DNA of 63,935 nt, the filler included. It is 17 parts of 17 records of this genome, joined end to end, with 100 filler letters (N's around TTAATTAATTAA, not from the genome) between each part and the next. Parts side by side here need not be neighbours in the genome. Positions count along the whole stretch, not along the records: positions 45,978 to 56,008 come from SRR9670534_890; 16 more parts are not named here. One strand, written 5' to 3'. Position numbers and translations under genes: made by a program. The notes beneath the pieces are model-generated. The model saw only the letters and a list, made by a program, of their open reading frames with translations, did not search any database and was not told the DNA's origin. Below, in pieces: positions 3,777 through 59,110 of this stretch; the stretch's first letter is position 1, and the number at the start of each line of letters is the position of its first letter.

Positions 3777-4360
3777 TTACGAACGAATTTTGGTTATATT
3801 TAAGACACATCCTTCATCTTCTCCACCACACAATTCATCAATAAATATATCTTTGTTTTTTTCGATAGGGTTTGACATTGCAACAATCATGATGTTGATC
3901 AAGACGATTATAAGAGTTATAATCGTGGCCGCTGACTGCAACTTATTCACCAAGATCAAATTCTTTCTATATTTCATGTTCTTTGAGGTGGCAACAAGCA
4001 GGATAAAGGCACCTGCAATTTGGAGTATAATTGATATGACTAACATGACCAACAGTGGCACATGAAACTTTTGGTATACTTCTTGCCCATGGTCTATGAC
4101 ATTCCTTAATTCTGATGCATTTTTTAGCAGCAACAAAGCATCAAAGCATCCCTTGGTGATGTTAACCTTACGGTGGAAAGCATTCATTTTTATATCGTGG
4201 TTAAAATCAGCATCTTTTTCCTAAAAGATAAGAAATATTTAAAAATGCTGATGCAGGTACTCCTTACTGGTTTTGAAGGTCCTTCTTCAGCTATAGAAGT
4301 AGAACTTGACTTGCCTGTACTTTCACTCACAAAGGAGTCTTTTGTCAGAGTTCGTGCATT
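3777..4360 (-). CDS. NINJ: Ninjurin B, tandem paralogue (first exon not located)
   Basis: NAFHRKVNITKGCFDALLLLKNASEL..ISIILQI..LQSAATIITLIIVLINI. Its intron is in the same position as in ninjurin A. Confidence 0.88.
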
Positions 4361-11349: not shown

Positions 11350-11898
11350 ATGGGCCTAAAGCATACCAAAGCAAAAATTGAAGTATTTGAAAATGGACAT
11401 CATAAACTTTTGCCATTCACCATAAAACAAATGAATTTGCTCACAGCGTCATGGAGTAAAATGAACATCGAGCATTTGGGATTTTTTTCCTTTGTCAGAA
11501 TCTTTGAAGCTGAACCTGATATTCAAAATCTCTTTCCACAGTTTAAAGGAAAGTCAAAGAAAGAATTAGTATCTTCAAAATGTGTTCGAAATCATGGAAA
11601 GAAATTTTTTGACGTAGTCTATGATGTCATTTTGTCTTTAGAAAGTAATGAAGGTTTGGAGAATGAAAAAGAACAGTTAATAAAGTTAGGTGCTGATCAC
11701 TACGCACATGGACCATTTAAGCCATGTTATTTTGATATTTTTTATTTCTCCATTATATCTGAATTGAATGAGGTAGAAGAAGACAATGAAACTATAGCTT
11801 CTTGGTCAATAATTCTACGCTTCATAATCAGTTACCTTCAAATAGGATATTTGGAAAAAGCGGAAGAAGAAACAGACAGTATCAAGGTTCTTTATTAA
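11350..11898 (+). CDS. Intronless globin with N-terminal extension (globin X-like, predicted myristoylated)
   Basis: A-helix W (ASW), CD1 Phe (NLFPQF), distal E7 His (RNHGKKF), proximal F8 His (LGADH), and the start MGLKHTK. Confidence 0.9.
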   Translation: MGLKHTKAKIEVFENGHHKLLPFTIKQMNLLTASWSKMNIEHLGFFSFVRIFEAEPDIQNLFPQFKGKSKKELVSSKCVRNHGKKFFDVVYDVILSLESNEGLENEKEQLIKLGADHYAHGPFKPCYFDIFYFSIISELNEVEEDNETIASWSIILRFIISYLQIGYLEKAEEETDSIKVLY

Positions 11899-12759: not shown

Positions 12760-15700
12760 TTAAAAAGAGGCATTGTGCATCTTTGCAACTTTTTCTAAGA
12801 TTTCCTTATGACCTGCATAATAAGATACATCTGCCTTAAGATCTTGCCATCGAACACTTTTAGCATCTAAAGCTTTCAATTTGAAAGAATCCAATATATT
12901 TCCAGTTTCATCATGATAGTTAACAGCTGTGGTTTCAACCCACGCATTATCTGTGTTTCGCACATCATCCATGTATCCCTTAAAAACATTCGTTCCTCGA
13001 ACGAAAAATTTCCAAAGCTTTTTCTTTGCCCGAAGTTTGTCCTCTACTGACATCTTTTCTCCTTCACTTGTTTCATCTTGGTATAATCTTGCCTTTAGAA
13101 CTTCATAAACTTGCATATGTTTGCCTCTGAGTATCCCCTAAACACAAAATGACTCATTAATTGTTTAATAGTGACATCTCCATGCATTATGTAAATTTGA
13201 GCATATATAAATATACCTTTGAAATATTATATTAATATTAGTGATTACTAAATTATAATATCATACTATAATATTAATTATAAAAATGTTAATTATTATT
13301 AATAATGTATTAAAGGCTGTAGTTTACTGCAATAAACAATTCTCGTAAATGATAGTATACTATAATGACTATTATAATGTAATAGTACTCCAGGTAATGC
13401 TAAATCATCAGTATCAGATCTCTCCACACAAATGAACTGTAGTGTAGGTAAATGGTTATTATCGTCATAGCATATGTCACCCACAGCATTTCTTTTCCAT
13501 CGAGTGACTACTGGATCACCAGTAGAATTAGGTCCCCATCTACCCAAGTTTCCCCTTCCAATAATACCAGTTCTGCCCATTGGATTCAATGGGATGTTAT
13601 CTTTGTCTAAAAGGTATTCAGTAACCAAACTTGTTCTATCAATTTCATAAAAATCATCCATGGCATTAAATTTTAGCTCAACATCAGGTGTTTCATTTTT
13701 TATGTCTGGATCTGCCCAATCAGGTTTTTCTGTTAGGATTGTCTCGTTTGTATATTCCACAGGTGCATACTCTGGAAAATCAATTTCCCAAGGCACTTGA
13801 ATATCTGGCACATCAAATCTTTTGATTGTCATGTTATGATATGGTGATATTCTTGCTTTTGCATGATAGTAACCACTTGCTGTTTTTTGTGTTATAAATC
13901 TGTTATATTCTAAAACAAAAACACCTTTGCACATCTACCAATTAAAAATGTAATAAATATTGATTGATTGATATTATTAATTTTACCTGATGCAGGTAAA
14001 GGTTCTATTATATCTTCTTTTGTTTGCACTAAGTTTTCCGAGGGTAAGGTTATGTCCTTTAAATTTGGGAACTGGCTTGAAAGTGATTTCACCACTTCAC
14101 CAATCATGTTAAACATAAACTCATTTTGACTTTCAATTTGTTTTAAACTTTTTTCAAACTTAGCCAAGGTTGTGTTTACGTTGGCATTCTTTGTTTCATT
14201 TTCAGCATAAACTAAATGATCAACAGTTGTCGTTAATAACTGTACTTTTTCATTTGTTTCTTTAACTCTTGTTTCTGGATTGTCCTTTGCTTTAATTGCA
14301 GCAGTTCTTAAATATTCATTCAGCTGTTCATCTTCCCACATGTTTAATTTACTTGCTTCACCAGGCGTCACCTTTTGCTCTATTAATTAAACCATTTATT
14401 TATTATATTAATATTATTCATAATAACAACTTCAATAATTATTAATAATAATTTTTATAAAAATAACTACTAATTATTATAATATATATAACAATAATAA
14501 TAATAATTAATATTATTAACAATTATTAATTATTACTTAACAATTACTAAGTATTAATTAACAATAATAAGGACTTACTAAATCCTTTTCTATTAGACTG
14601 AATTATGTCAGTTTTATCTGTTAAGCAACATTTTTTTGCTATGCTATTTGCAGCCATGTATATATGTGAAAAAATCATAAAAGGTGGAGCTAGTGATGGC
14701 CTATCAAAATATTCTCTAATCAGAGAGTATCTTTGAAATTTGTAAATCTCATCGGTGTTTCCTTGAACCACTTGAAATGTATAACTGAACATGGCAATTA
14801 ACAAATTGAGCAGCAAAATATTGACACATAACATGTACATGATCAGCATGATGGTATAAATGATCTTTGATGCTGTTGGTATGTTATTGCAGGTAGCGTC
14901 AGTTTCATCACATTCAATCCATGAGTCAAGATATAGTTCACCATACATTTGCCAATATGGATAATAGAATATGTTTCTAATGGCAAGCCATGAAAGGGTA
15001 ATACTGCTTGCATCATCAAGTGAGGCATTAATCACACATTGTGTTGCCACACCAAAGGCAACTAGAAATACTAGTAAGATTGCCATGAAAAAGGCAAGAT
15101 CTTTGAGCTACAAAACATAATGTTATGCTAATTTTTATATTATTAAAAAAAGTAAATTTAAAACCATTTTGCTAATCATGACAAGTTTGGGACCAATATC
15201 CTTCATGGCTGAGAAAATATGTAATAATCTCATAAACCACACAAATATATCCAGTGAAAATAGAATTCTAAAAGCAATTCAAAAAAGTTATAAAGCTTTA
15301 ATACTTTTTACTATCTCTTAATTATTAATAATAGTAAAGATACCTTGAAGTATAGTTGCATTCAGAGCACTCATTAGCTGGTATATACTTTAATATCATA
15401 GCTATAATGAAAACAATAACTCCTGTGCAATCTAATATGTTCCAAAAATTCTGAAGATAACTGTGCAATTTTGCAGATGTACTTCTGTCCTCACTACTAG
15501 CAAACTAAAATATAGTGATATCCATAAATAATAATTGATCACAAATCCATGAATCAATGGATTGTTGAAACCTGTCGAATTTCTTCCAGTATAATGTTAA
15601 ACAGCCAAATTATTAGCAGTATATCCAAATAATCAAATGAAGTCCCATCATACAAGCCAAACAGTATTTGAAAGCTGAGTAGAACAAGAAATGCTATGTA

Positions 15701-16428
15701 AGACAGCTAAACAAAAACATCAAAACAATATTATTATTAATAACAACATTTAATGAAACAGAAGACTTACCAAGCTGTGAATGAAAATAACAAATGGAGA
15801 ACTGTAGAAGTAAATAGTTTTTTGAAATAACCGAAATGGTAGTGTTTTATTAGCTCCAACACTTTTACTTTGATCTTTTTTATTTCTACAAAATATTTAC
15901 TTTTATGAAAAATGTTTTTTAAAAAGATAAAATTTTCAATTTATCAGTACATACTGCATATACCCAGATTGATTTTCCAATAAATTAATTTTTGTTTCCC
16001 TTCTAATGTCCATTATTTTTTTCTTATTTGTGTATCTTGTAGCATTTCCTCCTTTCTTTGAACTCTTGTTTGTTTTCTTCATAACATTATAGTCCAGAAG
16101 ATTTGTTGGTACAAGAAATGGAATAAGAACACATGCCAGAATCTAAATAATTAAAGAATTATTTATTTTTTCCTATTCAGCCATTGAGGTGCGACATCTA
16201 ACCATAAGTGTGCTGTTGCTAGCTGCCAAGTTGCCATACCAAATATTAGTCAACAAACTCTGGGTGGCAGCATGAGCCATAAATTTACTGTCATCACGCT
16301 CAACCGCTAATCTTAAACAGGTGGACATCCCAAATTCCTCTAATTCTCGAACTAATAACTTCTGTACCCTTTTATGGTCTTCTTCATGGCATTGATCCAA
16401 CACGCCATAAGCCAAATCGCCAAATATG
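12760..16428 (-). CDS. TRPM2: TRPM2-like channel with C-terminal NUDT9-H domain, 5' truncated
   Basis: LLVRELEEFGMSTCLRLA..WYG; pore PYWQMYGEL; NILLLNLLIAMF; TRP box YKFQR; NUDT9-H motifs PLNPMGRTGIIGRGNLGRWGPN and GYMDDVRNTDNAWVET. Confidence 0.93.
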
Positions 16429-17246
16429 CTATTATTCATAATTTTTATTACTAATAATGCAAATGTTTTATTTTAAATATTACCAACAATTTGTTGTTCT
16501 ATTAGGCCTATACTATGAATGTGAAATGTAAAACCTTACATTATTAGCTATATTGTTATTATTAAATATTAGTTATTAATAATAATAGAGTTAAGGTCAC
16601 TTTCTGGTAGACAACTAAGACCTAAACATGTCCCAAAACATATTAGATNNNNNNNNNNNNNNNNNNNNNNNNNNNNNNNNNNNNNNNNNNNNTTAATTAA
16701 TTAANNNNNNNNNNNNNNNNNNNNNNNNNNNNNNNNNNNNNNNNNNNNTAATAATAATAATAGTAATAATAATAATAAGAATAATAATAAATAATACATA
16801 ATAACAATAATAGTGTTATTATTTTTGTCATTTTTATTGCAAGACAGGTACAATAAAAGAATAAAAGTTTGTTGATTTAGGCTAACTAATCTTCAAATAT
16901 TGTTATTGTTTATTTCTGCTGTAAGCTTTTTATTTTATAAACATAAGCTATAAGCTCTCTTACATATACATTTTGAATAGGTCTAATATGCAATATTTGA
17001 CAATTAGCCAATCAAGTACCTATCGTTTATTCGATAAGTCAATTCAAAAATCTAATAAAAATGCTAAGGTTCCTAAACATAATTTAACATAGGTAATTAC
17101 GATCCCAATACTAATTATACCTCATATAATATTTATTATTATTAATAAGTAATTGATTAGTGATCACAATATTGAAGTTATATTGCAAAATTCACACCTA
17201 TAGGTAGATTCATTGAAAAATTGAAATGTACAATAGTAGAACTTAC

Positions 17247-43089: not shown

Positions 43090-43639
43090 NNNNNNNNNNN
43101 NNNNNNNNNNNNNNNNNNNNNNNNNNNNNNNNNTTAATTAATTAANNNNNNNNNNNNNNNNNNNNNNNNNNNNNNNNNNNNNNNNNNNNAAATTTGTTGC
43201 ACAGTGTAATTATAATTATTACTATAGTAGCATAGCTATATTTTTTGTTACAATAATATTATTATTAATATTATTTTTTTATTTACTGAAATACATAACA
43301 AATTATTACTAACAATTTTCAAAAGCATATATGCTTTTGCTATAGCTAATTATAATTAAATTTCTAGTTAATGTACTTTATATATTTAGTATTCAATATA
43401 CTAAAATATATTACTATCATCTTTTTTCTATTGATATCAAAATTCTTCTAATAATATCTTTTGTTTTTAATAATGTAAAAATAGAGTTAATTTGTAAAAA
43501 TATAGTTACTCTTTTTTTAGTCTTTTGTTAATTTATTTATAAATACATTTAAATTAATTGTAAGAAAACATAAAAATAAAGTAAAAAAAAATAATTTAAA
43601 AATTAGTAACTATATTTATAAAAATAAAATTTAATAACC

Positions 43640-45600
43640 TGAGGTGGTAAATCATAAGTATATTGATGATAAATGGAATGAGCTTAAAACAATGATGCAA
43701 AATGCCATAGACAACAATGTGCCAAAGAAGAATCATGATAGTGAGAATTTACGTGAGGCAAAAAGGGAATGGAACATAGCCACAAGACGTTATGACTATC
43801 TACCATGTGATACTAATCAATTACTTCTAAATGATGCATGTAGGGAGGTGAGGGTACAGATCTGGTGGAATGATTTATATCATGATAGGGATAACACAAA
43901 ATTCCTAAAAAGTAATCCCAGGCTATTTTGGAACAAAATGGACAAAAAGAGATCTGAGATATTTAAAATACCTCCTCTAAAGGATAGTTCCAATAGCAGA
44001 ATAGTTATAGAAGACATTGACAAGGCAAATGTCTTAAATAAATTCTTCCAATCTGTGTTCACAAGAGATATTAGAACCAACTTCCCAAAAACAAAAGAAT
44101 TGAATAAAACTCTACGAATGCCAAAGTTCAAGAGGTGGGAATTAAATGAGGTTATCAAAAAGTCTAACAATTTCACTTCACCTGGACTTGACAACATTCT
44201 CATCATGCTCTACAAGCATAGTGGAAATCTATTCCAAACAAAATTACTTCAATATTACAATCTTCTCCTGAACAATGGCTTGTATCCATCTGAATGGAAG
44301 TTGTCAATAATAACACCAATATATATATTAGGAAAAGGATTGAGGCCTTTTGGCTAACAACAGGATTTATCAACTTATCCCAACATGGGTTCTTAACAGG
44401 AAAAGACTGTATCTTGCAAATGGTAGAATACGTAGATTACATACTACGAAACTATGAGAGAGGCCTCTCAAAACACACAATATACACAGATTTCAAAAAA
44501 GCCTTTGACACAGTTAGCCACAATGCACTTGAGACCCTACTCCTGAGGGCCGATATCCGAGGAAATCTACTTAAATTAATAATGAACTTCCTTAGAGGAC
44601 GACAACAGTGTGTAAGAGTGAATTCCTCTGTATCGGATTTTGCCGATGTTCATAGTGGGGTTCCTCAGGGTAGTGTTCTAGGATCATTACTATTTCTTCT
44701 AATGATAAACTCAATTGATGAGGTAATTAAATATATGCATCTATGGAAATATGCTGATGATATGAAATTAGCTACTCATCAAAACAACTTTCATCATATA
44801 CAAAAGGATCTAGATAGCATCAGTGAATGTCTAAAGACTGGATGCTTCAATTTGCACCAGAAAAATGTAAACACATACAATTCTTTACGAAGAAAATGCC
44901 TCCAGCACCACTTTCCATCTGCAACCATGTCTTAGAAATCTCAAATTTAGAAAGGGATTTAGGCATTATGATGGACTCCAATCTGACATTCCATAAGCAT
45001 GTAAACAAAATTATACAAAAGGTAAAACCAACACTGATAGGAATTATGATATCTTACACATCAAGAGAAATTGAAACATTAATGCTGCTTTATAAGAGTT
45101 ATGTCTCCCCACTTTTTAGATTTGGTAGCCCATTACTATTACACATAATGAAGAGTGATATAGTAAAACTGGACAAATTGCAAAAACACTTTATAAAACA
45201 TTTATACTACCCAAGACAAAGTGATACCAACAATTACAGAAAGAAACTGGATTATATAGGTATTTTTAGCATTGAAAACCTATTCATCTATCACTCGCTA
45301 TTATTAGCCTATCAAATAATAGTACAAAAAAATCATCCAAAACTACACGACTTGCTAAAATTTAAGGTTAATCCGTTAAGGAGACACCCACACGAATTAA
45401 GTAATGAACTATGGTTGAAGACAAAAGTTAAAAACTTTTTTATAAATTCCATTTACATACACTGGAATGATCTTTCTAGAGAGGCCTTTAATATAAAAAG
45501 TAAAGACTACTTTAAACGAGAACTCAAAAAACATCTGTTCTCCAAACAGATAAAGAATGTTTCCCTGGATAACATTTAATGTAGACCACAAAAAAGGCTT
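43640..45600 (+). mobile_element. CR1/L2-type LINE reverse transcriptase, frameshifted and 5' truncated
   Basis: KANVLNKFFQSVFT, SPGLDNI, YTDFKKAFDTVSH, SGVPQGSVLG, YADD and ERDLGI, spread over three frames. Confidence 0.95.
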
Positions 45601-46414
45601 TACACTTTTTCCATATAATTAAAAACTAACAAATATCCTAACATAAGTTATACTTTAATTAACAAGTTTTTCTATAAATGTTTAAATATGTGTCATTGTT
45701 ATTTTAGGATATTGAATGAGATTCTGTTGGATCAAAAGCCTTGGTAAAGTGTTCCATGTCTCATTCCTTATAACACACTGTGCTATATGTTTTTATCATT
45801 ATTTGATTTACAATTTTTTCTGTCCAATTTTTGGTGATGTTTTTATGTACTAACTATAGTGCCATGACATAACTGTTNNNNNNNNNNNNNNNNNNNNNNN
45901 NNNNNNNNNNNNNNNNNNNNNTTAATTAATTAANNNNNNNNNNNNNNNNNNNNNNNNNNNNNNNNNNNNNNNNNNNNATATTCAAATGAATTTTCAAAAA
46001 AAATTTTCTTTTTGAGACACCCTAATGAATTATAGTGCAGTTTATATTATAAGGTTTAATGCTCTATTGGTGTGCATAAATCAATCTATTATAAGTGCAA
46101 TAACTTTTTTCAATAATAACTAATGTTATTATTATTAATAACAATAAGCCTTATTTATGATATCTAGAACAAATATGAATTTATTGATATTATTATTATT
46201 AATAATAATATAGCATATGTCAATATAACCAATAAGATTGCAGGAGAATGACATTCAAAAACATGAATATTAATAACAAATAACAATGGTACAAAGGATG
46301 TAAACAAATAGACACATAGAATAACTGTAACTATTTTATTAATTATTTTTTGTTAGCTGAATAGTATGTAATTATTCAAATAATTTGAAAATAATACTTC
46401 GTGAAGTTTGGCAT

Positions 46415-49400
46415 TTAGTCACGTTTTGCTTTACTCCACTGAATAAGTAGTGTAGAATCTCGAAATATATAAACTAGCTTTTCATATAATTCTTGTTCCA
46501 AGTAAAATTCTTTGGCAGATCGTGTAAGGTAAATATCTAGGCATAGCCTTATGATGCGATCAGGATATGGAAGTTCTTCATAAGGAATCTGTCTATAGAT
46601 GCCGCTAACAAACGTGCGCACAAACTGGCCAACAATGAACACCATAGAAACATACAACCCCATAATGCTAAAAAGTTTTAAAAGTTTTCAATATAAGCTT
46701 ACCACTACCATTACAATACCCATATCCAGCAAAAAACGAAAAACTTTCTGGTGCAACACGGTCGTTAAAAGCTATAATGCTAAGAAAATCAGTTCTTTTC
46801 TTATTCCTAATGCTTTTGGGAAGCCATGTGCTGTGACCACCTAACAACTCTGAAACCTCCCACCATTCAGAAAAAGAACCGTTTTTTCCAGAGTTTCTTA
46901 GTGTTAAACTGACATTGCTGAACATATACGATGCATCTAATAATACATGCTTCCTTTATCAAATATACAATAATAAATCATAAACAAACAAAGAAGTTAT
47001 TAACTTTATTACTTGACAGTAGTTGAGAAACGTATTCTGATTTTCGGCTAGCAGGAACTTTCACAAATCTCGGAAAAAGAGCCGTAACTTGCCTAAATTT
47101 GAATTTTTATATACTTTTTGCGATACCTTCATATGGCCACGCCCTATTGCTTCATTGGCTGTACGATCAATAAGGCGGAGCTACATTGATTGTTATGCCA
47201 ATATGTAGTTTATTTGGTTTACGTGAGCGATTATTGAGTCCACGTATAAGTTCACACCAATTAGGCCCGAACATATGAACAATGTAGCTCAGTTGATTTA
47301 TGTATTCGAATAATTGCAGACAAAATGACATCATACACTGCATCTTGCGATTTTCCTTCCATTAAATTCGCAAATTCTTCTCGAGTGCGGTCGTCATGCT
47401 CTAACTCGGCATTGTGAATATTGCTGACGGTATCTTGAACTAAGGCTGTATTTTCTGGTTCCCTCGTAAATTGCCATGAAAAAGCAATGTTAATCTTGTG
47501 TTCAGACTTCAAATCGGCGATTAAAGCTGCTTTTCCTGGTGGACTTATATCCCAAACTGAGCTAGAATTGCCCTGTATAGTTACCCATGTCATATCATCA
47601 TGGCTGTATTCAATAATAAACGATTGAGCTTCCTAAAAATATAATAGTTTAGTCAATCAGGTAGGTAATACATACTACGCACAGGTACGCGATGGGCAAA
47701 TAAACCCAAGCAGTGCATGTACCACTGGCACACAATATACCAGTCATGCACTACCAAGGTTTGTTCAATCATTCATACAATGTATATGTAATTATGTAGC
47801 AATTACGTAATTATTAGTTAATTTCTTATTGCAATTAGGTTATTGCATTTTTGTACATGTCACGTTTTTCGTGACATGTGTTGTAGTACACTGTATGAAT
47901 GATTGTATTTTATCCCCCATGACCCCATGACCACAAGTACTAGTTGCGAAGTTCTATAGTAGAACTGTAACAATATAACTAGATAATTTCTCTGGTGGAA
48001 GCAGGGGTGGATGGTGGGGTAAACATTTTATTTAAATTTACCAAGACTACAGTAACGTAGTCTTGGCAAGATTATATTCAGAATAATACAAGTAGTGTAT
48101 GCAATGCATCTTATATGCAGCCGATCCCAAAACTAGTTTGTTACATTTTATTGTACCTATGAATCTTGTCATAGGTTCAATGCAACACTTTTCATGTCAG
48201 TTTACTCATAATAACAAAGGTGCATTATTTCTATAACAATTTCTTTAAGATTGTTGCCCATCGTCTAACCTGTGCTGTCCGCATTACAACAGTAAATTGC
48301 ATTTACTTACAGTAAGATGTAGAAAATGAACCTACCCTGTCTTTTTCGTAATAACTAAGCATATCTTTGTACTCACTTTCGGTAAACGTTCTGAGCTCTG
48401 CTTGCTGAGCACTCATTCGAAAAATAGGCTAGAACAGGGTTTACATTTTTTAGAATGTTAATTAATAATAATGATTATTTTAATAAAAATTCAATGAGAA
48501 AAACTTTCTTTAATTAATAATAACAATTTGAAAAGTACTATTGTAACAATATATACGCCAAGGTCGCAAAGTAGGCGCAGTTATAATTTTGTAAAAGTAT
48601 AACTCCACCCATTTCACGATCTTTTAATTTTATATAAGATTTGACTTGTATGCTTTTTAATTCTCATTTTAAATTTTAAATTATAATAAATTTTAATAAT
48701 TTTAAGTTTAATAAATTAAGATGTGCATAACAGATTTCAAGTTGTTATTAATATAAATGTTACCTGGTAACTTCCTAATCTAATTTCCACCGTGGCATCT
48801 ACAGGAGGATTGCGGATGCCAGCTGAATTTGCAAATGAGAAAAGTAATAATGGAAACCATATGATTCCTATGATTCCTAAAAGCAAAATTCCGCCACAAC
48901 CATACTTGACTAGGCTTCTTCTCTTAGCGCCTCTTGGTATAGGATATGTCTATCAAAAAAAGATCACATTTGACAACCTTAGTTTAAATTTTAATAAAAA
49001 CTTTGCTCGACATAATTTTTAGATTTTTACTTCTTCCTGAGTTCTCCAACATTTAATAATGTACATATTAGAATAAATATCTTCCATTTGAAGCCAATTA
49101 GACAAGGACAACGTAGTATCCGTCCACATCCAATCCATGAGCGACCTTAATTCCAATAAAAATGGAATAAGCAAAAATCTAAAAGATAAGTATTAAGAAC
49201 AATCGCTATTACGTAACGATTACTAAATACTGATAAATGGTCACCCTCTATATAAAACAAAATTGACCATATTGTATTTTTTAGTTAAAAAGTTTCCAAG
49301 AATTCTAGTTGGATAGCCACAACGGACTTGGTATGCAGATAGGCCAAAATAAATGCATTTGGTAAAATACCAGAGTTGTGCAGGAATATTTTCTGTGAAC

Positions 49401-52400
49401 TTTCTAAATTATAAAAATGGTGTTAAAAATTATTGTAAGTGATTATTATCATTATTATTAATAATGAATTATTTGACTAAACACATACCTTTCAGTAACT
49501 GCAGGTAAAATATAAAACATCCATAAATGCGCCACTAAAACAATAACATACTGATAAAGTAATTTTCCAATAACATTTTTTCTTAGAAATAATGCTCGAT
49601 CGACAACAATCATGGCAAATTGCAGCATCAACATAATCAGGAATGGCTGAGGTACTTTGTTTTGTTCAATAAGTTTTGCAACATTGCTGCTTCCAGCCTT
49701 TTCCTATTCAACAATTTTAAATGACATAAAGTCATTGCTTTTTCCACAACCAATTATGTAATTTAATTGAATCATATACAATTTTAATTTTAAATTTTAA
49801 AAATGTAAATTTAAAAAAAATTAAATTTAAAATTTTAAAAAATTTAAAAAAATTAATTTTAAATTTTAAAAAGATTATAAATAATTAGCCTTAGATATTA
49901 AATATATGCATAAAATGTACCCCAAAAGCATAGTAACCAAAACATATAATTATAAAGCAAATGAAATCACAAATGAACATCATTGCATAGACATCTGCTG
50001 GTGGGTTGTTACTGTAGATTACTGCATGGAAGAAACTTCTCAATGGTTGAATGACTTTGCTCATTCTAAAATACAAAAGGCAAATATCAGTCATAATGGT
50101 GAAAGGGTATTATTTAATTCTTTTGTTATTCTATCAGATAAGTATAGATTCTTCACCTTCGCCTAATGTAGCGCTTCCTTCTAGCTATCACTGACTCCTT
50201 TTTCAATTTGGCAGATTTGCGCTGTATTTCATCTTCTTCATCCTCTGCAAATGGCGGAAGAATATATTGAATACATTGGACCTATAGTTATTTTAGGTAC
50301 TCTACTTTTGATTGTCTTATGTTCTGTAATATCCTGGTTATGGGGATACTGCTTATGTTGTTGTAAACGACGAACTGTAACAAGACATGAAGAACATGAA
50401 ATGAGGAGAGTGGACTCATGCGAGGAAATCGCATATATCAGCTATCATAACGAAAGAATGAAGGAACTAACTCAAAAAATGAGGGAAGAAAATGAACAAC
50501 TTAAGGAAGTATTTCACGAATTAAGCGGCACAAGCAAAAAAACCACAGTCAAATGGGATGATTTTTTGAAAGTGAAAAAACGCTTGTTTTAATAACAACA
50601 AAGGGACATAGGTACCTGCTACTACACTTTGAGAATATTCGACATCTGTTTCCGATTCATCCTCTGGCGGGGGACCACCAGCACCAAACAACGGTTTTCT
50701 TTCACTGTCAAGTTCAGACATAGAAACTGATTCAGAAGATGATTCGTCCTTTTCATGATCGTCTTTTTTAACAGGTGATACAGTTGCTTCTGTGGAGCTG
50801 ACAGGTTCTGTTTGTTCCTCAATATGTTGATCAACCAGTGGCACTTGCAATGAATATGGTAGCGTTTCTTGCGGCACAGCCTCAACAATGACAGGTCTTT
50901 CATCTTTGTCAGACCCAGAACTTTCATGCTCAAATCTACTGCTAACAGTGTCTGGATGAATGTATTCTGATCTGTCTTGCCAAAGACCTTGTTTCTATAA
51001 ATATTGTATTCTAGGTTGCTCAATTGAGCGATACATTACATATTAATATTAATAAAATAACCTTGAGTATGTTTCGATGGGTAAACAGCATTAGCAGCAA
51101 AACTAAGTCAAATGATGCATAATTATCTCTTTTTTCTATGCCTAATATTCTAGGAGGCCAAAATGGAGAATCATTATAACTCCCATCATTCCAAGGAAAA
51201 AATCCAAATTGAAAACAATACTTGATAACTACCACTGCCTAAATAAATTTACATCAAAATTTCTATATAATAATAGGCTTGTTGTTCTGACTTCAGTGTA
51301 AGTTATAACTGTGATCCAAAAACGCTTTGAAGGCCTTGGCGAGCTAAGCATAGCCCATAAGAAAACCATCAATGGCAATGGTAAAGACAAAATACTTGCA
51401 GACTGCATTTGATTTAAAATTATAACCAAATAACATAAAAATTCAGATCTGCTCATCAATGCATGGAATAAGCATACACAAAGCTTATATAATCTATTTT
51501 TCCTTTTGAAACTTGCATTTGAAGAAACAGTTTTTTCAGCCTCACTTTTTCTAAAATTTATTGAAATGTTATTGGGTTGTTCAAAAAAAAGCAATGACAA
51601 AAACGTCACCGTGTCAAGAGTTAAAAAATATAAACTATCTCAAAATATATAAAAATTACTAATAATAAATAAATTTTAAATCTAAAGATACCCATCCTCC
51701 TCTTTAACGATAGTGCTACCCTCGAAAGAATTTGTTTCTGTTCTCTTTTCATGAACAGGAGAATCAGTGACTGTAATCTCAATAAGTTGTGCTGAATCAT
51801 AACTAAAGCCTCGAAGTGGCGCCTTAGCGTCATCGTTATCACAATCGTATCCACAGTGAAAGTTAATGTGGGCTTCCCTGTGATCTTTCTGCAAAAGTGC
51901 AAAAAATGATTACTACTACATTATGACATATGATTACGATTACTATGTATTAAATAAACGGAAGACAAATTAACTAGGATATATTCAATAACATGATCTA
52001 ATTATGATAATAACAATTTTAAAAATTTCAAAAATTTAACTTATCCTTACAAGCTGTTTCTGTTTCAGGGTTTTTTTCTCTTGAGATAACTTGTTATAAA
52101 CATATAAATAATCTCTCGTACTATTAACCAGAAAATCCGTAATTTGATCCAATGAGGCACAAATTGCAGCATGTACAAGCAAAAACATTCTTCTGATTTT
52201 CTTGGGTGTAGCTACGATTAAATTTCCATACATATAATGTTATTACAATATTGTAAAATAGTGAATGAAATCTTACTGTCTTTTTCAATGTGTGCCAAAA
52301 TAATGTGTTCATCAAATAATACTTGAGAACCACCGCCACCATTTTCCTTTGAAACATCTATGGTTTCGAATGGTGGTGGCAAATGAACTGTACTGATGTA

Positions 52401-55400
52401 CACATCTTCTTCATCTCCTTCCTTTGCTGCCGCAATGTCTAGTGTCGATTTAGATTTCACTTGAAAAACTTCTTCTTCCCATTCATCGGCATCTGTACTA
52501 ACAGCAGTCTAAACATTTCATTAATATGAATGGTTGGCATTGATTTTATTAAATTTAACATCCATTACCATCCAGTCAGAACTAACACCTGAAAGTCCAG
52601 AATTCTTTCTCTCCATAATAGCTTCATATAGGGCTGTTCTAGTCCCAGATTGAAGAGCCGTATTCAACAACTAGAAAAGGAATAAGTATAGATAAAAGAT
52701 GTCGCTGATACTGGCTCGTGCATTATACCTGAAATGGTCCCATCCGACTACTTGCACGTCGTTTAATTTCTGCAATTTTTTGCCTAATTACATTTTCCTC
52801 ATCTTCAGTTATTTCATCCGACTCTATTTCATCAGAATCAATTTGTTCATACTTATGCCAATCCTGTGCATGAAGAACTAGGAAACGATAATACTATATA
52901 TTCTATATCCATAATAATTGTAGAAATCGACAAGACCACCATACATTATTTTAGACTACCTCTGCCTTGTCAATGGGGCAAAGTCTAGTTAAAAAAGAAA
53001 TAACAGAAGAAAAGGATATTGCTGATTGGCAAAAACCTTTCTTAAGTTTAGAAGACAAAAGAATCATTTTAAGGACGTGGACGCTTCTTCATGGGAATGT
53101 AAACAATGTCATGATGGCAACATTTATAAAACTTATTCTTACTAACAAGGAAATTAAGAGAATTTTTAACGATATAGAGGTTGAAAAAGTTAAGGTATCA
53201 GAAATTGGATATCATAAGTATGAGATCCCATGTCGAAAGGCCTGCGATTTCATCCAAACAAATATCATAGATGATATACATAACATGCAATTTAATAAGC
53301 AAAAATGTATACAACTTGGCCAGTGGCACCAAAAACAGATCCATGGCTTCAAGACAAATATGTTAGTTAAATTTCAGCAGTATTTTATGCAAAATGCAAA
53401 CGTTCATCTAAATTCCGATGAAATGGAAGTTTGGAACAGAGTTATGGAATTCATGATTGGTGCAATGGTGACAGATGAAAGCGTTCAACAAAATACCACA
53501 CTTGCTAGTAAAGATAATTAGTTACTTCTGAGAAAATACCTTCATAATCTTGTTTATTGGTATCTTCACCATCAATCGATTTTTCTGAATGTTGAGCTTT
53601 AATACGCTCCATGTTTAATTTAATTTTTAAAATAAGTCTGTGTTCTTTTTTTCGTTCTCGTTCAATGTCTCTTTGAAATAATTCGTGAATTAGTTCTGCA
53701 CCCCTAATATTAAAAAAACAATAAAAATGAAGTACCTACGTCAAAAGTTTAAACTTCAATAGATTTCATACCTAGATGCCAAATCTCCTTCAGCACGGAA
53801 CTCATTAACAACATGCTTGAAGTAATGACTCCCAAACATTCGTCTTTGCACGATAAGAAATGCAAAGCAAATTCCATCCCAAAGAAGTCCAGCTTCATCC
53901 ATGGGTAAGGTACAATTTCCAATTGTAATGTATTCTAAATTTAATTGATTAAGTTTAACTTTACTAGAATGATCTAAAAGAATAAAATGTTATGCATGTT
54001 ATGAACTAATTGATCAAATCCTGATAGAAAGCTACTGCCAATACGAATCAAATAATGATTTGTATTAATTTGAAACCTGTGGTTGAACCAAAAGGACCAA
54101 ATGAACCAAAAAAGTCTGTTACTAATCCACCTAACACAATGATAAGTAGGATGATGTTGTTGTATAATTATGCTATTGGATATATGAATTTTTACTACGT
54201 TTACCATCTAACGGTACGGAGAAGATAAAGCACAATCACTTTTTTCTGCATCATGCAATCTGAACAATTTTTTGCAATAGCTAAGGAAAATAAGCAAGCC
54301 TATGCTTATAACGATAGTTAATGGCTAGAATATTTTCAGATATTCAAAATATCATTACTGATCAGCATAAAGCTACGAAGGATATATGTGCTTGGAGTAG
54401 CAGTAAATGTGTGGATACTAAAGCAGCAAGAAGAAACTATGCATAACAACATAGTACAATTATTTGATATTTACAAGAAAAGCTCCTGAATAAAGCATAG
54501 GAATAAAATTACTTTTGTTAAATGAAGCAAGTGGTCATAAAATATATTTATAACTTAATATTAGCTGATATTTTAATAGGCTATATATTGTACAGTAATA
54601 CACGTAACAATCTATCATGTTACAATATATCTACATTTTAGAAAAAAGATGTCGCTGTAAAATGTAACTTGGATTCCGCCATCTTGAATTTGGGACGGCA
54701 ACACCTTGTTATAAAATTTAGTGCCTGTTGGCAATTATTTCATTATGTAGTGAGCACAGCATTTATCTTATTAGAGTAATAAGGTTAAAATAGCGTTTTT
54801 ATCTAACAAATAATTCATTATGGTGAATTTCCAAATTATTAATATAAAATTTGTTGTATAGATTATACAGTATCTATATGAATACATAAATAGAAATGCT
54901 ATCATACCTTCCTCTATATTTATAAAACTCTTCCAGCAAACAATGGCAAACAACTGAACTACTACGCAATGATTTGTAAATAAGTACTCTAGCATAACAC
55001 AACCCACAACCTAAAAGCAATAGGTATGTATTTAATGTCTAATCTTCAGGAAATATGTAGAAACTCCACCTGTAGACATGACTTGACAAAAAGTACCAAA
55101 AAGCTATAAACTAGCAGAATGTTCCACCTAAATACAATCTATACATAAAGTTACATTCGATACAATTTTTCATAACTTGTAATCAGTACTATTCATCGTT
55201 AAATGCTTACCATTTGATTACAATTCTGATTGGTTTAACCAACAGATCTTGGCCATACCATAGAAAAATAAAGCAGCAAACCACATATCCCATGCAGAAT
55301 AAGCTAATTCGTGAGGTGCCAGTTATGTAAACTATGGCTAAAGTTATCCAAAAGCCATACATGAACAAGAATACCTTCATTAAATCTAGGTATGACCTAA

Positions 55401-55911
55401 AGATAAAGTGTTAAATTTTGGAAGTCAAAACAAATTACGCATACTTTGGATATGAAATGTAATCATAAACAGGATTATCCAAGGATGTTTCATCATCATA
55501 TATAATTTCCCGATTTTCTCCACCACCATACACTCTCAATTGGTCCTTTTCTCTAGCGAACACTCTCCATTGGAGACATACAAACAGAAGTTGAAAAAAA
55601 TCCGCAATTAATTTGTGAGGATTTGGTTTGTAGGCAGGGTGATACTCAGGTAAGTACAACCATGTTTGAAGATTTTTATTCATTTCATCAGGTTCATCCC
55701 ATGGATAACCAATACATGCACCTTGGGGCAAGCCCAAGCATAGAAGATATTGTAATGGTAAAACTAGAGCAAGAAAACTAGCATATACAGGCCAGATTTT
55801 GACAATGTGCTTTCTTTTCAGTAATAAAAATAATCCAAGCCATAACGCGTAGATGATGGAATATCCATCAGTTCTGACGCCAATGGTAGCAACAGAGGTT
55901 ATGTAACAAAT
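46415..55911 (-). CDS. PIEZO: Piezo mechanosensitive channel, C-terminal half (more than 20 exons), 5' truncated
   Basis: [59 protein letters not shown] and [10 protein letters not shown]. Confidence 0.97.
47679..48275. mobile_element. TIR-bounded non-autonomous element in a Piezo intron
   Basis: Imperfect inverted termini gcacaggtacgcgatgggcaa / ttgcccatcgtctaacctgtgc (CAC..GTG type). Confidence 0.7.
50251..50592 (+). CDS. Nested antisense single-pass membrane protein (113 aa)
   Basis: ATG-to-TAA ORF wholly inside Piezo intron 50245-50615. TM helix, then CLCCCKRR, then a coiled-coil-like tail. Confidence 0.8.
   Translation: MAEEYIEYIGPIVILGTLLLIVLCSVISWLWGYCLCCCKRRTVTRHEEHEMRRVDSCEEIAYISYHNERMKELTQKMREENEQLKEVFHELSGTSKKTTVKWDDFLKVKKRLF
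52973..53521 (+). CDS. Nested antisense intronless globin (182 aa), no distal His
   Basis: MGQ.., [15 protein letters not shown]1 Phe (KRIF), F8 His (LGQWH) and H-helix EVWNRVMEF. It lies inside Piezo intron 52878-53539. Confidence 0.85.
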   Translation: MGQSLVKKEITEEKDIADWQKPFLSLEDKRIILRTWTLLHGNVNNVMMATFIKLILTNKEIKRIFNDIEVEKVKVSEIGYHKYEIPCRKACDFIQTNIIDDIHNMQFNKQKCIQLGQWHQKQIHGFKTNMLVKFQQYFMQNANVHLNSDEMEVWNRVMEFMIGAMVTDESVQQNTTLASKDN

Positions 55912-56219
55912 CTAATATAAAAAATTATTATAATTATTATTATAATATAATAATTTAAATTATATATTGATATATATTGATTTAATAATATATATATATA
56001 TATATATANNNNNNNNNNNNNNNNNNNNNNNNNNNNNNNNNNNNNNNNNNNNTTAATTAATTAANNNNNNNNNNNNNNNNNNNNNNNNNNNNNNNNNNNN
56101 NNNNNNNNATTTAAATTCAAAATTTTAAAATTCAAATTCTAAATTCTAAATTTTAAAATTCAAATTAATTTTTTTTTTAAATTTTCAAAATTTAAAACTT
56201 AAACTTAAATTTTACATAG

Positions 56220-59110
56220 ATGCGGTAAGACGTCTTTATGCCAAGTAATTGCGGCTGCAATGAACAAGGAATTAGCTATTGTCAATTGTCATCAGCACAC
56301 GGAAGCGTCTGATTTTTTGGGAGGACTAAGGCCATGTCGAGATGTTTCTTTGGTAAGTAGTAAGCAATATTCCATTTTCTTTGTAATAATTGGTAAAGTT
56401 AAATGACATGAAAACTCCACTGTCATATTCATCCCCCTTTCTTTCCGTTCTAATAAATCTTCCTCCAAGTATTGCTGCTATGATTGTCAAAATGCACAAA
56501 ATTAGCACAATAGAAAAAACACAAACACATATCCATTTGCTTCTGAGGTCCATAATGGTGCTTAACAACTTGGAAAACTTTGTACAACAAGCTTCCTTTA
56601 TGTTATTGCACATGCCTCTGGCCATATCGTAGCAGATTGTTATATGTCTAATTTGCAACACATCTGGTAGTATTAGCAGCTTAATTTTCGAATGGTTATC
56701 ATTATTGATCAACTTTACCACTTTAATATGTATTCCTCTTACCCCATCTTCATAATGATGGACTTGGACAGTTTATATATTGTTTAGAAGGCAAAAAGAG
56801 TATAAGTATTTGTTCTTAATTAGAATGTCTGTTTGATGTCATTATTATTTGCTTTGTAGACTTCTGGTAAGTTGTTCGAGTGGGTAGATGGCCCCTTAAC
56901 AACAGCTCTGAAGACAGGGAATGCAATCATGTTAGATGAAATTTCTTTAGCAGATCATTCAGTGTTGGAGAGGTTAAACAGTGTGCTGGAGGATGAAAAA
57001 TCACTAATTCTTGCTGAAAAAGCAAATGTTGAAGTTGTAATAGGTCAAGAAGAGTTCAATTTGATGGCAACCATGAACCCAGGTGGTGATTACGGCAAAA
57101 AAGAGTTATCCCCAGCGTTGAGAAACAGGTTCACTGAAATTTGGTGTCCTGTTGAGTTTTCAAGGGATGATTTGCTAGAGTTGGTAAATCACAATATGAT
57201 ATGTAAAGATTTAAGAGACCAGGTCATTGACTTTTTTCTGTTTATGAAAGAACAAGTTTTTTCGCAAGGGCGAAATGAGTTTCTAAAAATAGTAACAATC
57301 AGAGATTTATTGATATGGATATCTTTCGTTAATACTACAGTACTTAAAAGATGGACTGACAGTGATGCCGTTTTTCAAGGTGCACAAACGGTTTTTCTGG
57401 ACATGATGCCTCAGAAAGGTGATAAGTATAGCAAAAGTTGAATACACTACCTATATTAATAAAAAACATCTACTTATTATAAGTACGAGCGATGTTTTAG
57501 GTACTTTGTATGAAAGGTGGTTTCAGAAACTAGATGATCTATTTGGTTGCACAGTTGATATTTCACAGAGTGAACTGGTTGTCGTTGAAGAAGCAAATCA
57601 AGCTGGAATTTTTCCATGTTTTATTACAAAAGGTGATTGATGATGAATATTTTTAAAAAAGATGTCAGTATTTAGTAGAATTTCTCTTGTAGGACCTTTA
57701 AATCATGCAAACCCATCATTTCCATTCACTTTCAATTGTGCAACAACGAAGCACAACTGTATGCGCGTTTTACGTGCTTTACAAATAGAGCACAGACCTA
57801 TTTTGCTGGAAGGTTCTCCAGGTGTTGGAAAAACTTCACTGGTATGTGCCTTGGCAAATTTCTGCGGCTATGAAATTACTCGAATTAATTTGTCTGAACA
57901 AACCGACCTGTGTGACCTTTTTGGTTCAGATCTTCCAGTTGAAGGTCATAGCTCAAAATTCTCATGGAGAAATGGCCCTTTCTTGAATGCTTTGCTTAAT
58001 GGGCATTGGATAATCCTTGATGAATTAAATCTAGCTTCCCAATCGGTTTTGGAAGGGTTGAATGCTTGCTTTGATCATCGAAAACAAATTTTTATCCCAG
58101 AACTTGGAAAAACCTTTAAGCTTGCAGAAGGTTCATCCACTCAATGTCAGATTTTTTGTTGTCAAAATCCACAACAACAGGGTGCTGGAAGAAAAGCTTT
58201 ACCAAAGTCTTTTTTGAATAGATTTTCCCGAATTTGGATGGAAGAGTTTTCTAAGGACGATTTAAATTTTATAATGTCAGCATTATATAAACAGGACACA
58301 GTATCACAAGAAGACATTCAGCAAATGGTTGAATTCATTTGCACTTTGAATAAACGTCTTCCAAATTCTGCGAGCGTTCAGTATAGTCTTAGAGATTTGC
58401 TCAGATGGGCAGATATTTATATTGAATACCAGAATTCTTGCTCACCATCGCATTTTATTTTTCCTCTTTTTGTTCAAAGGTTAAGATGTGAACATGACAG
58501 AAACAAATGTCTAGATATAGCTTTAGATGTGTTTGAAAATGCACGTAAAGATGACATTCTATCCTACAACCGCGGCTTTTTAACTCTACTTGCTGAGTAT
58601 ATTACCATAGACAAATTTAAATTTTCTAAAAGTAGTACGAATAATGTTCTAATGAATGGTAATGAAATACTTTTGAATGGACATTTAAATACTTATTTAA
58701 AAACCTTCTTAATTTGTATGAAAATGAACATTTGTCCCATTATAACTGGACGTCATGGCTCTGGTAAGACACTTTTGGCTACAACTGCAGCTCAGTTGTT
58801 GAATCAAAAAATTGAATTTATGAATGTTGATTCATTAACAGATGCCGCTGAAATATTAGGCAATTTTGATCAAAGAATCATTTATGAGAAGGTGTTGCAG
58901 GAGCATATCATGAAAATTCACTCACAATTAACTGACATCATAAAAAAAGATTTGTTTCAAGATGGTACTGACCATGTACTGTTTGAAGCACAATTTCTGA
59001 AAGACAGGTTGATCAATGACTATGAGGTTTTCCTGGAGAACTCATCAACTACTGGTCTAACAAATTTTGTAAATGATAACTTCATGCTCTTTGCAAAATA
59101 TCCAGAATTT
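56220..59110 (+). CDS. MDN1: Midasin AAA-ring region, partial
   Basis: NCHQHTEASDFLGGLRP, FEWVDGPL, ATMNPGGDYGKKELSPALRNRF, PILLEGSPGVGKTSL and LNACFDHR. Confidence 0.97.
56326..56625 (-). CDS. Putative nested antisense single-pass protein (99 aa) in a midasin intron
   Basis: MARGMC..CC..WICVCVFSIVLILCILTIIAAILGG.. inside intron 56353-56859. The last 27 nt overlap a midasin exon. Confidence 0.55.
   Translation of the reverse strand: MARGMCNNIKEACCTKFSKLLSTIMDLRSKWICVCVFSIVLILCILTIIAAILGGRFIRTERKGDEYDSGVFMSFNFTNYYKENGILLTTYQRNISTWP

Follow-up and report, generated by a model that had tools for sequence, protein, structure and literature searches.

A 113-codon open reading frame antisense to Piezo fills most of a Piezo intron and may encode a small membrane protein

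The window analyzed here is a stretch of 63,935 nucleotides (nt), made of 17 parts joined end to end with filler between them, and the locus of interest lies in the part that occupies positions 45,978 to 56,008. The DNA is AT-rich, with a guanine-plus-cytosine (GC) content of 0.21-0.36 across 2-kb bins, and carries many eukaryotic genes with short introns. One of these is the C-terminal part of a gene for a Piezo channel, which extends from 46415 to 55911 on the minus strand. Within it an intron of 371 nt (50245-50615) is filled over 92% of its length by an open reading frame (ORF) on the plus strand (50251-50592), whose predicted product is called P0001 below. In an earlier examination of the sequence (hereafter the original prediction) it was proposed that this ORF is an antisense gene for a membrane protein.

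The identity of the host gene was established from the Pfam and PDB matches of the exons flanking the intron. Three stretches of the minus strand matched Piezo families in Pfam, two of them Piezo_cap (46415-46687, E 8.5e-33; 47261-47632, E 1.2e-17) and one Piezo_THU9_anchor (49458-49703, E 5.4e-22). In PDB searches mouse Piezo1 residues 993-1118 were matched by 55435-55911 (E 5e-24), residues 1669-1747 by 51229-51639 and residues 1954-2002 by 49891-50109. The match to residues 993-1118 also marks the last Piezo exon seen, and the N-terminal ~990 residues were not seen in the window, for which a gap in the assembly, truncation of the gene or an intron of great length could account. Beyond the Piezo exons (55911-56210) there is a run of N's at about 56,000-56,055, followed by plus strand exons of the AAA_5, midasin-lid and nSTAND3 types.

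The splice sites of Piezo on the minus strand were read by eye. Seven hand-read exons (49245-51480, minus strand) join into 450 codons with no stop once 50245-50615 is removed, whereas the Piezo frame runs into a stop 31 codons into the gap when that segment is retained. Since the seven exons can be joined without a stop only by its removal, the phase-1 intron, with the junctions GTA GCA G/GTACCT...TTGCAG/AG GAT, is real as a sequence feature; its donor GTACCT begins at 50615 and its acceptor TTGCAG finishes at 50245, and the length, phase and junctions given in the original prediction are thereby confirmed. The exon upstream of it (50616-50994, minus strand) contributes 126 codons of an acidic loop, has a GC content of 0.427 and ends in GTA GCA G at 50616, and the exon downstream (50157-50244, minus strand) is 88 nt long, rich in Glu, Lys and Arg, and starts with AG GAT at 50244. 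Because the flanking PDB alignments are to mouse Piezo1 residues 1669-1747 and 1954-2002, the intron can be placed in the poorly conserved cytosolic loop that precedes THU9. Its GC content is 0.353, as compared with 0.368 for the pooled exons and 0.193 for six neighboring introns pooled (range 0.13-0.29). The Piezo intron at 49704-49920 (minus strand), for instance, has 217 nt, a GC content of 0.13 and low-complexity A/T repeats. When the entire Piezo region was parsed roughly with a greedy script, 30 gaps resulted, which ranged from 42 to 485 nt around a median of ~91 nt. RNA folding of the 371-nt gap was unremarkable (z -2.18 for the minus strand and z -1.65 for the plus strand).

No Rfam family was matched in the window, and neither a second copy of the gap or ORF, as a repeat or paralog within the window, nor terminal repeats flanking the gap were found, so that there is no evident case for a transposon or a known RNA gene. 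A retrogene insertion was likewise ruled out, as judged from the sequence alone, given that the stop is not followed by a poly(A) remnant and that untranslated regions (UTRs) would not fit.

The plus strand ORF at 50251-50592 runs from ATG to TAA over 113 codons plus the stop (342 nt), with the TAA at 50590-50592 and a second TAA directly after it (TAATAA). It lies wholly inside the Piezo intron and on the opposite strand, as the coding sequence of a nested antisense gene does, with 6 nt and 23 nt of intron to spare at its two ends; its size, its coverage and the position of its ATG 6 nt from the acceptor edge all agree with what had been proposed. The ATG, preceded by no other in its frame, has an A at -3 and a G at +4. 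An ORF of at least 113 amino acids, on either strand, arose in only 1 of 5000 dinucleotide-preserving shuffles of the 371-nt gap. Coding potential was scored with a codon model for which 26 coding stretches of the window served as the training set and the remaining trinucleotides of the window as the background. Frame +1 of the ORF scored 0.243 bits per codon, the best of the six frames, which can be set beside a leave-one-out mean of 0.206 (standard deviation 0.086) for real exons, among which the true frame ranked first in 20 of 26 cases. Only 4 of the 44 other ATG ORFs of at least 60 amino acids outside the training set scored as high, and those four resemble real exons. Among 3000 shuffles, 112 matched the margin by which frame +1 exceeded the next-best forward frame, and the tail of the ORF (amino acids 41-113) scored z 1.81 against shuffles. 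The codon signal of the ORF is weakly positive.

The predicted product of the ORF has one hydrophobic segment that stands out, with a Kyte-Doolittle 19-residue maximum of 2.77 at residues 9-27. Hydrophobicity and an AlphaFold2 (AF2) model agree on a predicted transmembrane (TM) helix at codons 10-33 (50278-50349, plus strand). The nine residues that precede it carry a net charge of -3 and residues 34-48, which follow it, a net charge of +2; P0001 is therefore predicted to have a hydrophobic helix of at least about 20 residues with positive charge on one flank. At codons 34-41 (50350-50373, plus strand) the helix is followed by CLCCCKRR, in which juxtamembrane cysteines are succeeded by basic residues, a candidate site of S-acylation and a candidate stop-transfer signal. 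The cysteine cluster of the original prediction is confirmed in the sequence, and its TM helix is also predicted here. From the position of CLCCC at the putative cytosolic end of the helix, the cysteines may be S-acylated. The AF2 model, which was built from the single sequence, had a mean predicted local distance difference test score (pLDDT) of 76.4 and showed helices at residues 3-51, 57-94 and 102-112, with a pLDDT of 95-96 over residues 11-30 and of 81-94 over the second helix. This second helix (codons 57-94; 50419-50532, plus strand) is amphipathic and shows heptad periodicity according to the model and the hydrophobic moment. Its 3.5-residue hydrophobic moment of 1.206 was reached by 5 of 5000 residue shuffles, although the segment was picked after the model had been seen. 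In a fairer control, in which the maximum 38-residue heptad moment was compared among all 186 stop-to-stop ORFs of at least 60 amino acids in the window, P0001 ranked sixth, and its neighbors in that ranking are real coiled-coil exons, together with two probably non-coding frames.

Taken together, these features would make P0001 a single-pass membrane protein of 113 residues, with a nine-residue acidic N-terminus outside the membrane, a TM helix spanning residues 10-33 or thereabouts, the CLCCCKRR stretch next to the membrane, which might be S-acylated and would keep the positive side in the cytosol, and a cytosolic part formed by the amphipathic, heptad-periodic helix (57-94) and a short basic C-terminal helix. 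Small adaptors or scaffolds anchored in the membrane have such a layout. Single-pass proteins of small size that carry a cysteine motif next to the membrane include the transmembrane adaptors LAT, PAG and NTAL as well as the leads returned by Atlas (SMIM36 at 0.81, TMEM52 at 0.80, stannin at 0.79 and TMIE at 0.79, all below 0.9 and hence leads only). In the same way, P0001 would combine a single TM helix with an ectodomain of very few residues, a cytosolic face that bears cysteines and basic residues, and a cytosolic tail. It differs from the transmembrane adaptors in that it has no adaptor-type tyrosine motifs and no family match.

With only 6 nt and 23 nt of the intron outside the coding sequence, both ends of any mRNA for P0001 must be antisense to Piezo exons, a consequence which had been drawn in the original prediction and which follows logically. 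Transcription of the plus strand would proceed across the Piezo exon at 50157-50244 and onward over the exon at 50616-50994. An acceptor-like pyrimidine tract plus AG, cctttttcaatttggcag, is present on the plus strand at 50197-50214 and ends, as had been predicted, at 50214; it lies 36 nt before the ATG with no ATG between, and, being read from the sequence, is a candidate only. A TATA-like AAGTATAGAT, read by eye, is found ~100 nt upstream of the ATG. The first AATAAA after the stop is at 51051-51056 (plus strand), 459 nt downstream and in the next Piezo intron, and is a candidate poly(A) signal; with the first such motif at 51051, the 3' UTR would cover the Piezo exon 50616-50994 in antisense. 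The claim that the first codons double as the 3' splice region of Piezo can be upheld, since codons 1-13 of the ORF also form the predicted pyrimidine tract and branch region of the intron. The overlap of the two transcripts would make a sense-antisense interference with Piezo possible.

A second ORF that fills an intron was found in the same host gene. It encodes 182 amino acids on the plus strand (52973-53521) inside the Piezo gap at 52878-53539 (minus strand), of which it fills 83%, and its length was reached by none of 5000 shuffles of that gap, where the maximum was 136 amino acids. Atlas assigned it to the globins, with a score of 0.92, 205 of 256 features shared, 30 of 30 matches in globin clusters and a recognition value of 2534, and the best match in PDB was to an erythrocruorin globin chain (E 0.043). 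Pfam and sequence searches with it gave no match, and the single-sequence AF2 model had a pLDDT of 40, too low for a fold search. Judged by the profile of its Atlas and PDB matches, this ORF probably represents a divergent globin gene that lies within Piezo in antisense. Its stop lies 18 nt from the Piezo donor, as compared with 23 nt for the 113-codon ORF, and an acceptor-like ttattttag is found 22 nt before its ATG. Nine other Piezo gaps (144-382 nt) hold ORFs of 15-45 amino acids only. At least one intron-filling antisense ORF in Piezo therefore resembles a real gene, which raises the odds that the 113-codon ORF is one as well. A single-exon globin of 182 amino acids is also encoded elsewhere in the window, at 11350-11898 (plus strand); it starts with MG and is recognized by Pfam (Globin, E 4.4e-16). 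A BLASTP comparison of the globin-like ORF in Piezo with this globin showed no similarity (E 27).

On balance we judge it probable, if only modestly so, that the 113-codon ORF is the coding sequence of a real, lineage-restricted ("orphan") gene of the plus strand, nested antisense in the Piezo intron and specifying a small, possibly palmitoylated membrane protein. A number of observations weigh against this reading. The ORF was selected by eye, and when the window was shuffled in 1-kb blocks a mean of 0.435 ORFs of at least 113 amino acids was expected per window of ~64 kb, with at least one in 37.5% of 200 shuffled windows; an ORF of such length somewhere in the window is accordingly unremarkable, and what is remarkable is that it fills this particular gap. 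The gap itself is unique neither in composition nor in size, as the rough parse contains other gaps with a GC content of 0.34 and lengths of up to 485 nt. When compared with dinucleotide shuffles of the ORF itself, the in-frame codon score was only at z 1.27 (304 of 3000 shuffles reached it), and the transmembrane third showed no phase signal (z -0.29); much of the high codon score reflects an A-rich composition. ORFs in AT-rich DNA commonly encode hydrophobic stretches. The intron has no space for a promoter or UTRs, and the first AATAAA is as far as 459 nt past the stop. Searches for relatives of P0001 were negative as well: an exhaustive HMMER search of 1.84 billion representatives gave no match at E up to 0.001, a word-index search gave no match, and Pfam at E up to 10 returned only sub-threshold hits to DUF4446 (15.5 bits against a cut-off of 27.4), HeLo (14.2 against 23.2) and Tweety. 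In PDB at E up to 10 there were 11 sequences, the best with E 0.17, and in Atlas the recognition value was 2040, below the mark of 2300, with the best score (0.86) falling to an unnamed cluster.

The weight of these negative searches depends on how well the source organism is covered. By exact look-up, none of five ORFs of the window was found in a collection of 15 billion proteins, including the globin with a Pfam E of 4.4e-16, and the source organism is thus not represented there, which makes the absence of homologs of P0001 weak evidence. By the same token, the orphan status of the ORF cannot be claimed firmly, as close relatives may also be absent from the collections. Pattern searches gave 101 matches for P0001 in metagenome contigs and 26 in viral contigs, none of which was confirmed, and a conserved Piezo exon gave 438 matches in metagenome contigs, again with none confirmed. 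A search for longer proteins with the Piezo exon P0002 had no match either, within a search that spans proteins of at most 2000 residues. A literature search directed at genes nested in Piezo introns gave nothing relevant. Like other orphan or de novo genes, the candidate has no detectable homolog and is short, single-exon and helical.

Much of what weighs against the gene also favors its main alternative, in which the intron is open on the plus strand by accident, is untranscribed or transcribed as noise, and owes its TM and helix features to a T-rich stretch followed by an A-rich one. The expected number of ORFs of this length per window, the low z-score against the ORF's own shuffles with the silent TM part, and the lack of any homolog, family, paralog or sufficient Atlas recognition all speak for it, and some probably non-coding ORFs, such as 47170-47361 (minus strand), reach similar heptad moments. 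We nevertheless hold a chance ORF to be unlikely, though it deserves to be taken seriously, as the length of the ORF is almost never attained in shuffles of its own gap, its frame is the best of six, its heptad moment is rarely reached and its GC content is exon-like beside introns at 0.13-0.29; furthermore, the globin-like ORF in the same gene and on the same strand is not a product of chance, while nine other gaps hold only very short ORFs. The claim that a membrane-protein gene is present is plausible and partly supported, by an ORF that is rare for its gap, in the best frame, with a predicted TM helix and a heptad helix and with a globin-like counterpart nearby; no homologs were found.

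Two further readings assign the ORF to a larger coding structure. In one, it would be the last exon of a longer spliced or trans-spliced gene of the plus strand that uses the acceptor at 50214. Its stop-to-stop frame reaches back to 50185, 50215 is on the codon grid and the pyrimidine tract plus AG ends at 50214, and the globin-like ORF likewise has an acceptor-like site shortly before its ATG. A candidate in-frame join would begin with a plus strand ORF whose ATG is at 49906 and skip the stretch 50107-50214 (GTATTA...GGCAG), for a product of ~192 amino acids with a first exon opposite a conserved exon of Piezo; this upstream ORF is open over 49906-50166 opposite the exon at 49921-50065, and over 49891-50109 the plus strand frame has the best of the six codon scores, 0.121 as against 0.008 for the true Piezo frame. 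The splice sites, however, were read by eye only, an in-frame join has 1 chance in 3, frames antisense to hydrophobic exons are often open, and it would be unusual for a conserved transmembrane exon of Piezo to be coding on both strands, so that we consider a longer gene improbable. In the other reading, part of the gap would code for Piezo itself, with the upstream exon extended to 50532, a mini-exon of 69 nt at 50306-50374 and two smaller introns, and the plus strand ORF would be incidental. This parse preserves the frame and was preferred by a greedy exon-chaining script, but the script rewards coding length and also placed a spurious-looking 81-nt exon inside the gap of the globin-like ORF. 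The new donor it requires, GTGCCG, is weak, and the added residues, hydrophobic where the remainder of the loop is acidic or basic, show no similarity to solved Piezo proteins, the loop not being alignable. The mini-exon parse is therefore rated as an artefact of a script that rewards coding length, and coding by Piezo within the gap appears very improbable.

It was also suggested in the original prediction, as speculation, that P0001 might act as a channel accessory subunit or that the transcript might act as an antisense regulator. The location of the ORF inside the Piezo gene, and the fact that any plus strand mRNA would be complementary to Piezo exons, are in keeping with this, as is the precedent of MDFIC, MDFI and MDFIC2, MyoD-family inhibitor proteins that serve as auxiliary subunits of PIEZO1/2 and act through a cysteine-rich, palmitoylated, membrane-associated helix (PMC13080014). 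In MDFIC this helix is located at the distal C-terminus, where it is oriented parallel to the inner leaflet (PMC13080014). P0001 is likewise small, has a cysteine cluster beside a membrane-embedded helix and could be S-palmitoylated; unlike them, its cysteines are at residues 34-38 of 113 and follow an N-terminal membrane-spanning helix, and it has no cysteine-rich interfacial helix at its far C-terminal end. It also lacks a sequence match to the family: Pfam at E up to 10 showed no resemblance to MDFI proteins, and none of the 11 sequences that PDB returned at the same threshold was MDFIC. Moreover, as the neighboring nested ORF is globin-like, residence in a Piezo intron does not imply a function related to Piezo. 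An accessory-subunit role for P0001 and a regulatory effect of the antisense transcript on Piezo are both without support here and highly doubtful.

As for the arrangement itself, nested antisense intronic genes are a known kind, of which the ORF at 50251-50592 would be a new instance. Drosophila 2mit, for example, is a protein-coding gene in intron 11 of timeless2 on the opposite strand. Intronic genes are put at ~6% of the genes of D. melanogaster, ~85% of them protein-coding (PMC3786989). Compared with 2mit, the candidate gene is alike in that its coding sequence lies wholly within a host intron and in antisense, and in that its candidate product is a membrane protein; it differs in that the intron has 371 nt and is 92% coding, in that UTRs and promoter cannot lie inside it, and in that the gene is a predicted one.

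Several other ORFs were noted in the window. A 99-amino-acid ATG ORF with a hydrophobic helix (56326-56625, minus strand) is antisense to a plus strand AAA_5/midasin-lid exon, which it partly overlaps; Pfam returned only a sub-threshold DUF3377 for it, and it is a third small ORF of TM type opposite a host gene. Two neighboring ORFs of the Ninjurin family are found at 2452-2853 and 3777-4220, both on the minus strand (Pfam E 3.5e-15 and 1.6e-15, respectively). At 43638-45579 (plus strand) three overlapping long ORFs of 213-250 amino acids look, by eye, like a frameshifted reverse transcriptase of the non-long-terminal-repeat type, and at 12760-16472 (minus strand) there are exons that resemble, again by eye, a TRPM-type channel with a NUDIX-like C-terminus; 13299-13934, the sole stretch of this region put to Pfam, had no match at E up to 0.01.

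If the nested gene is real, it would represent an extreme case of gene nesting, in which 92% of a 371-nt intron codes on the opposite strand. This DNA would be under a double constraint, as splice signals of the host would reside in the first codons of the guest while the UTRs of the guest would lie over exons of the host, and the transcripts of host and guest could affect each other. A link to mechanosensation would be of real interest, although nothing in the analysis supports one. It is a long shot, put forward as such, that this compact genome uses Piezo introns as slots for antisense genes that nearly fill them, one for an acylated membrane protein and one, 2.4 kb away, for a divergent globin, with the UTRs of the nested genes formed by host coding exons and their first codons by host 3' splice signals, and that the membrane protein is co-regulated with Piezo or acts on it as a small lipidated subunit. 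A real gene at this locus would add a small, possibly palmitoylated membrane protein without a known family, and, considered jointly with the globin-like ORF, would suggest a way in which lineage-specific genes are packed into a compact genome.

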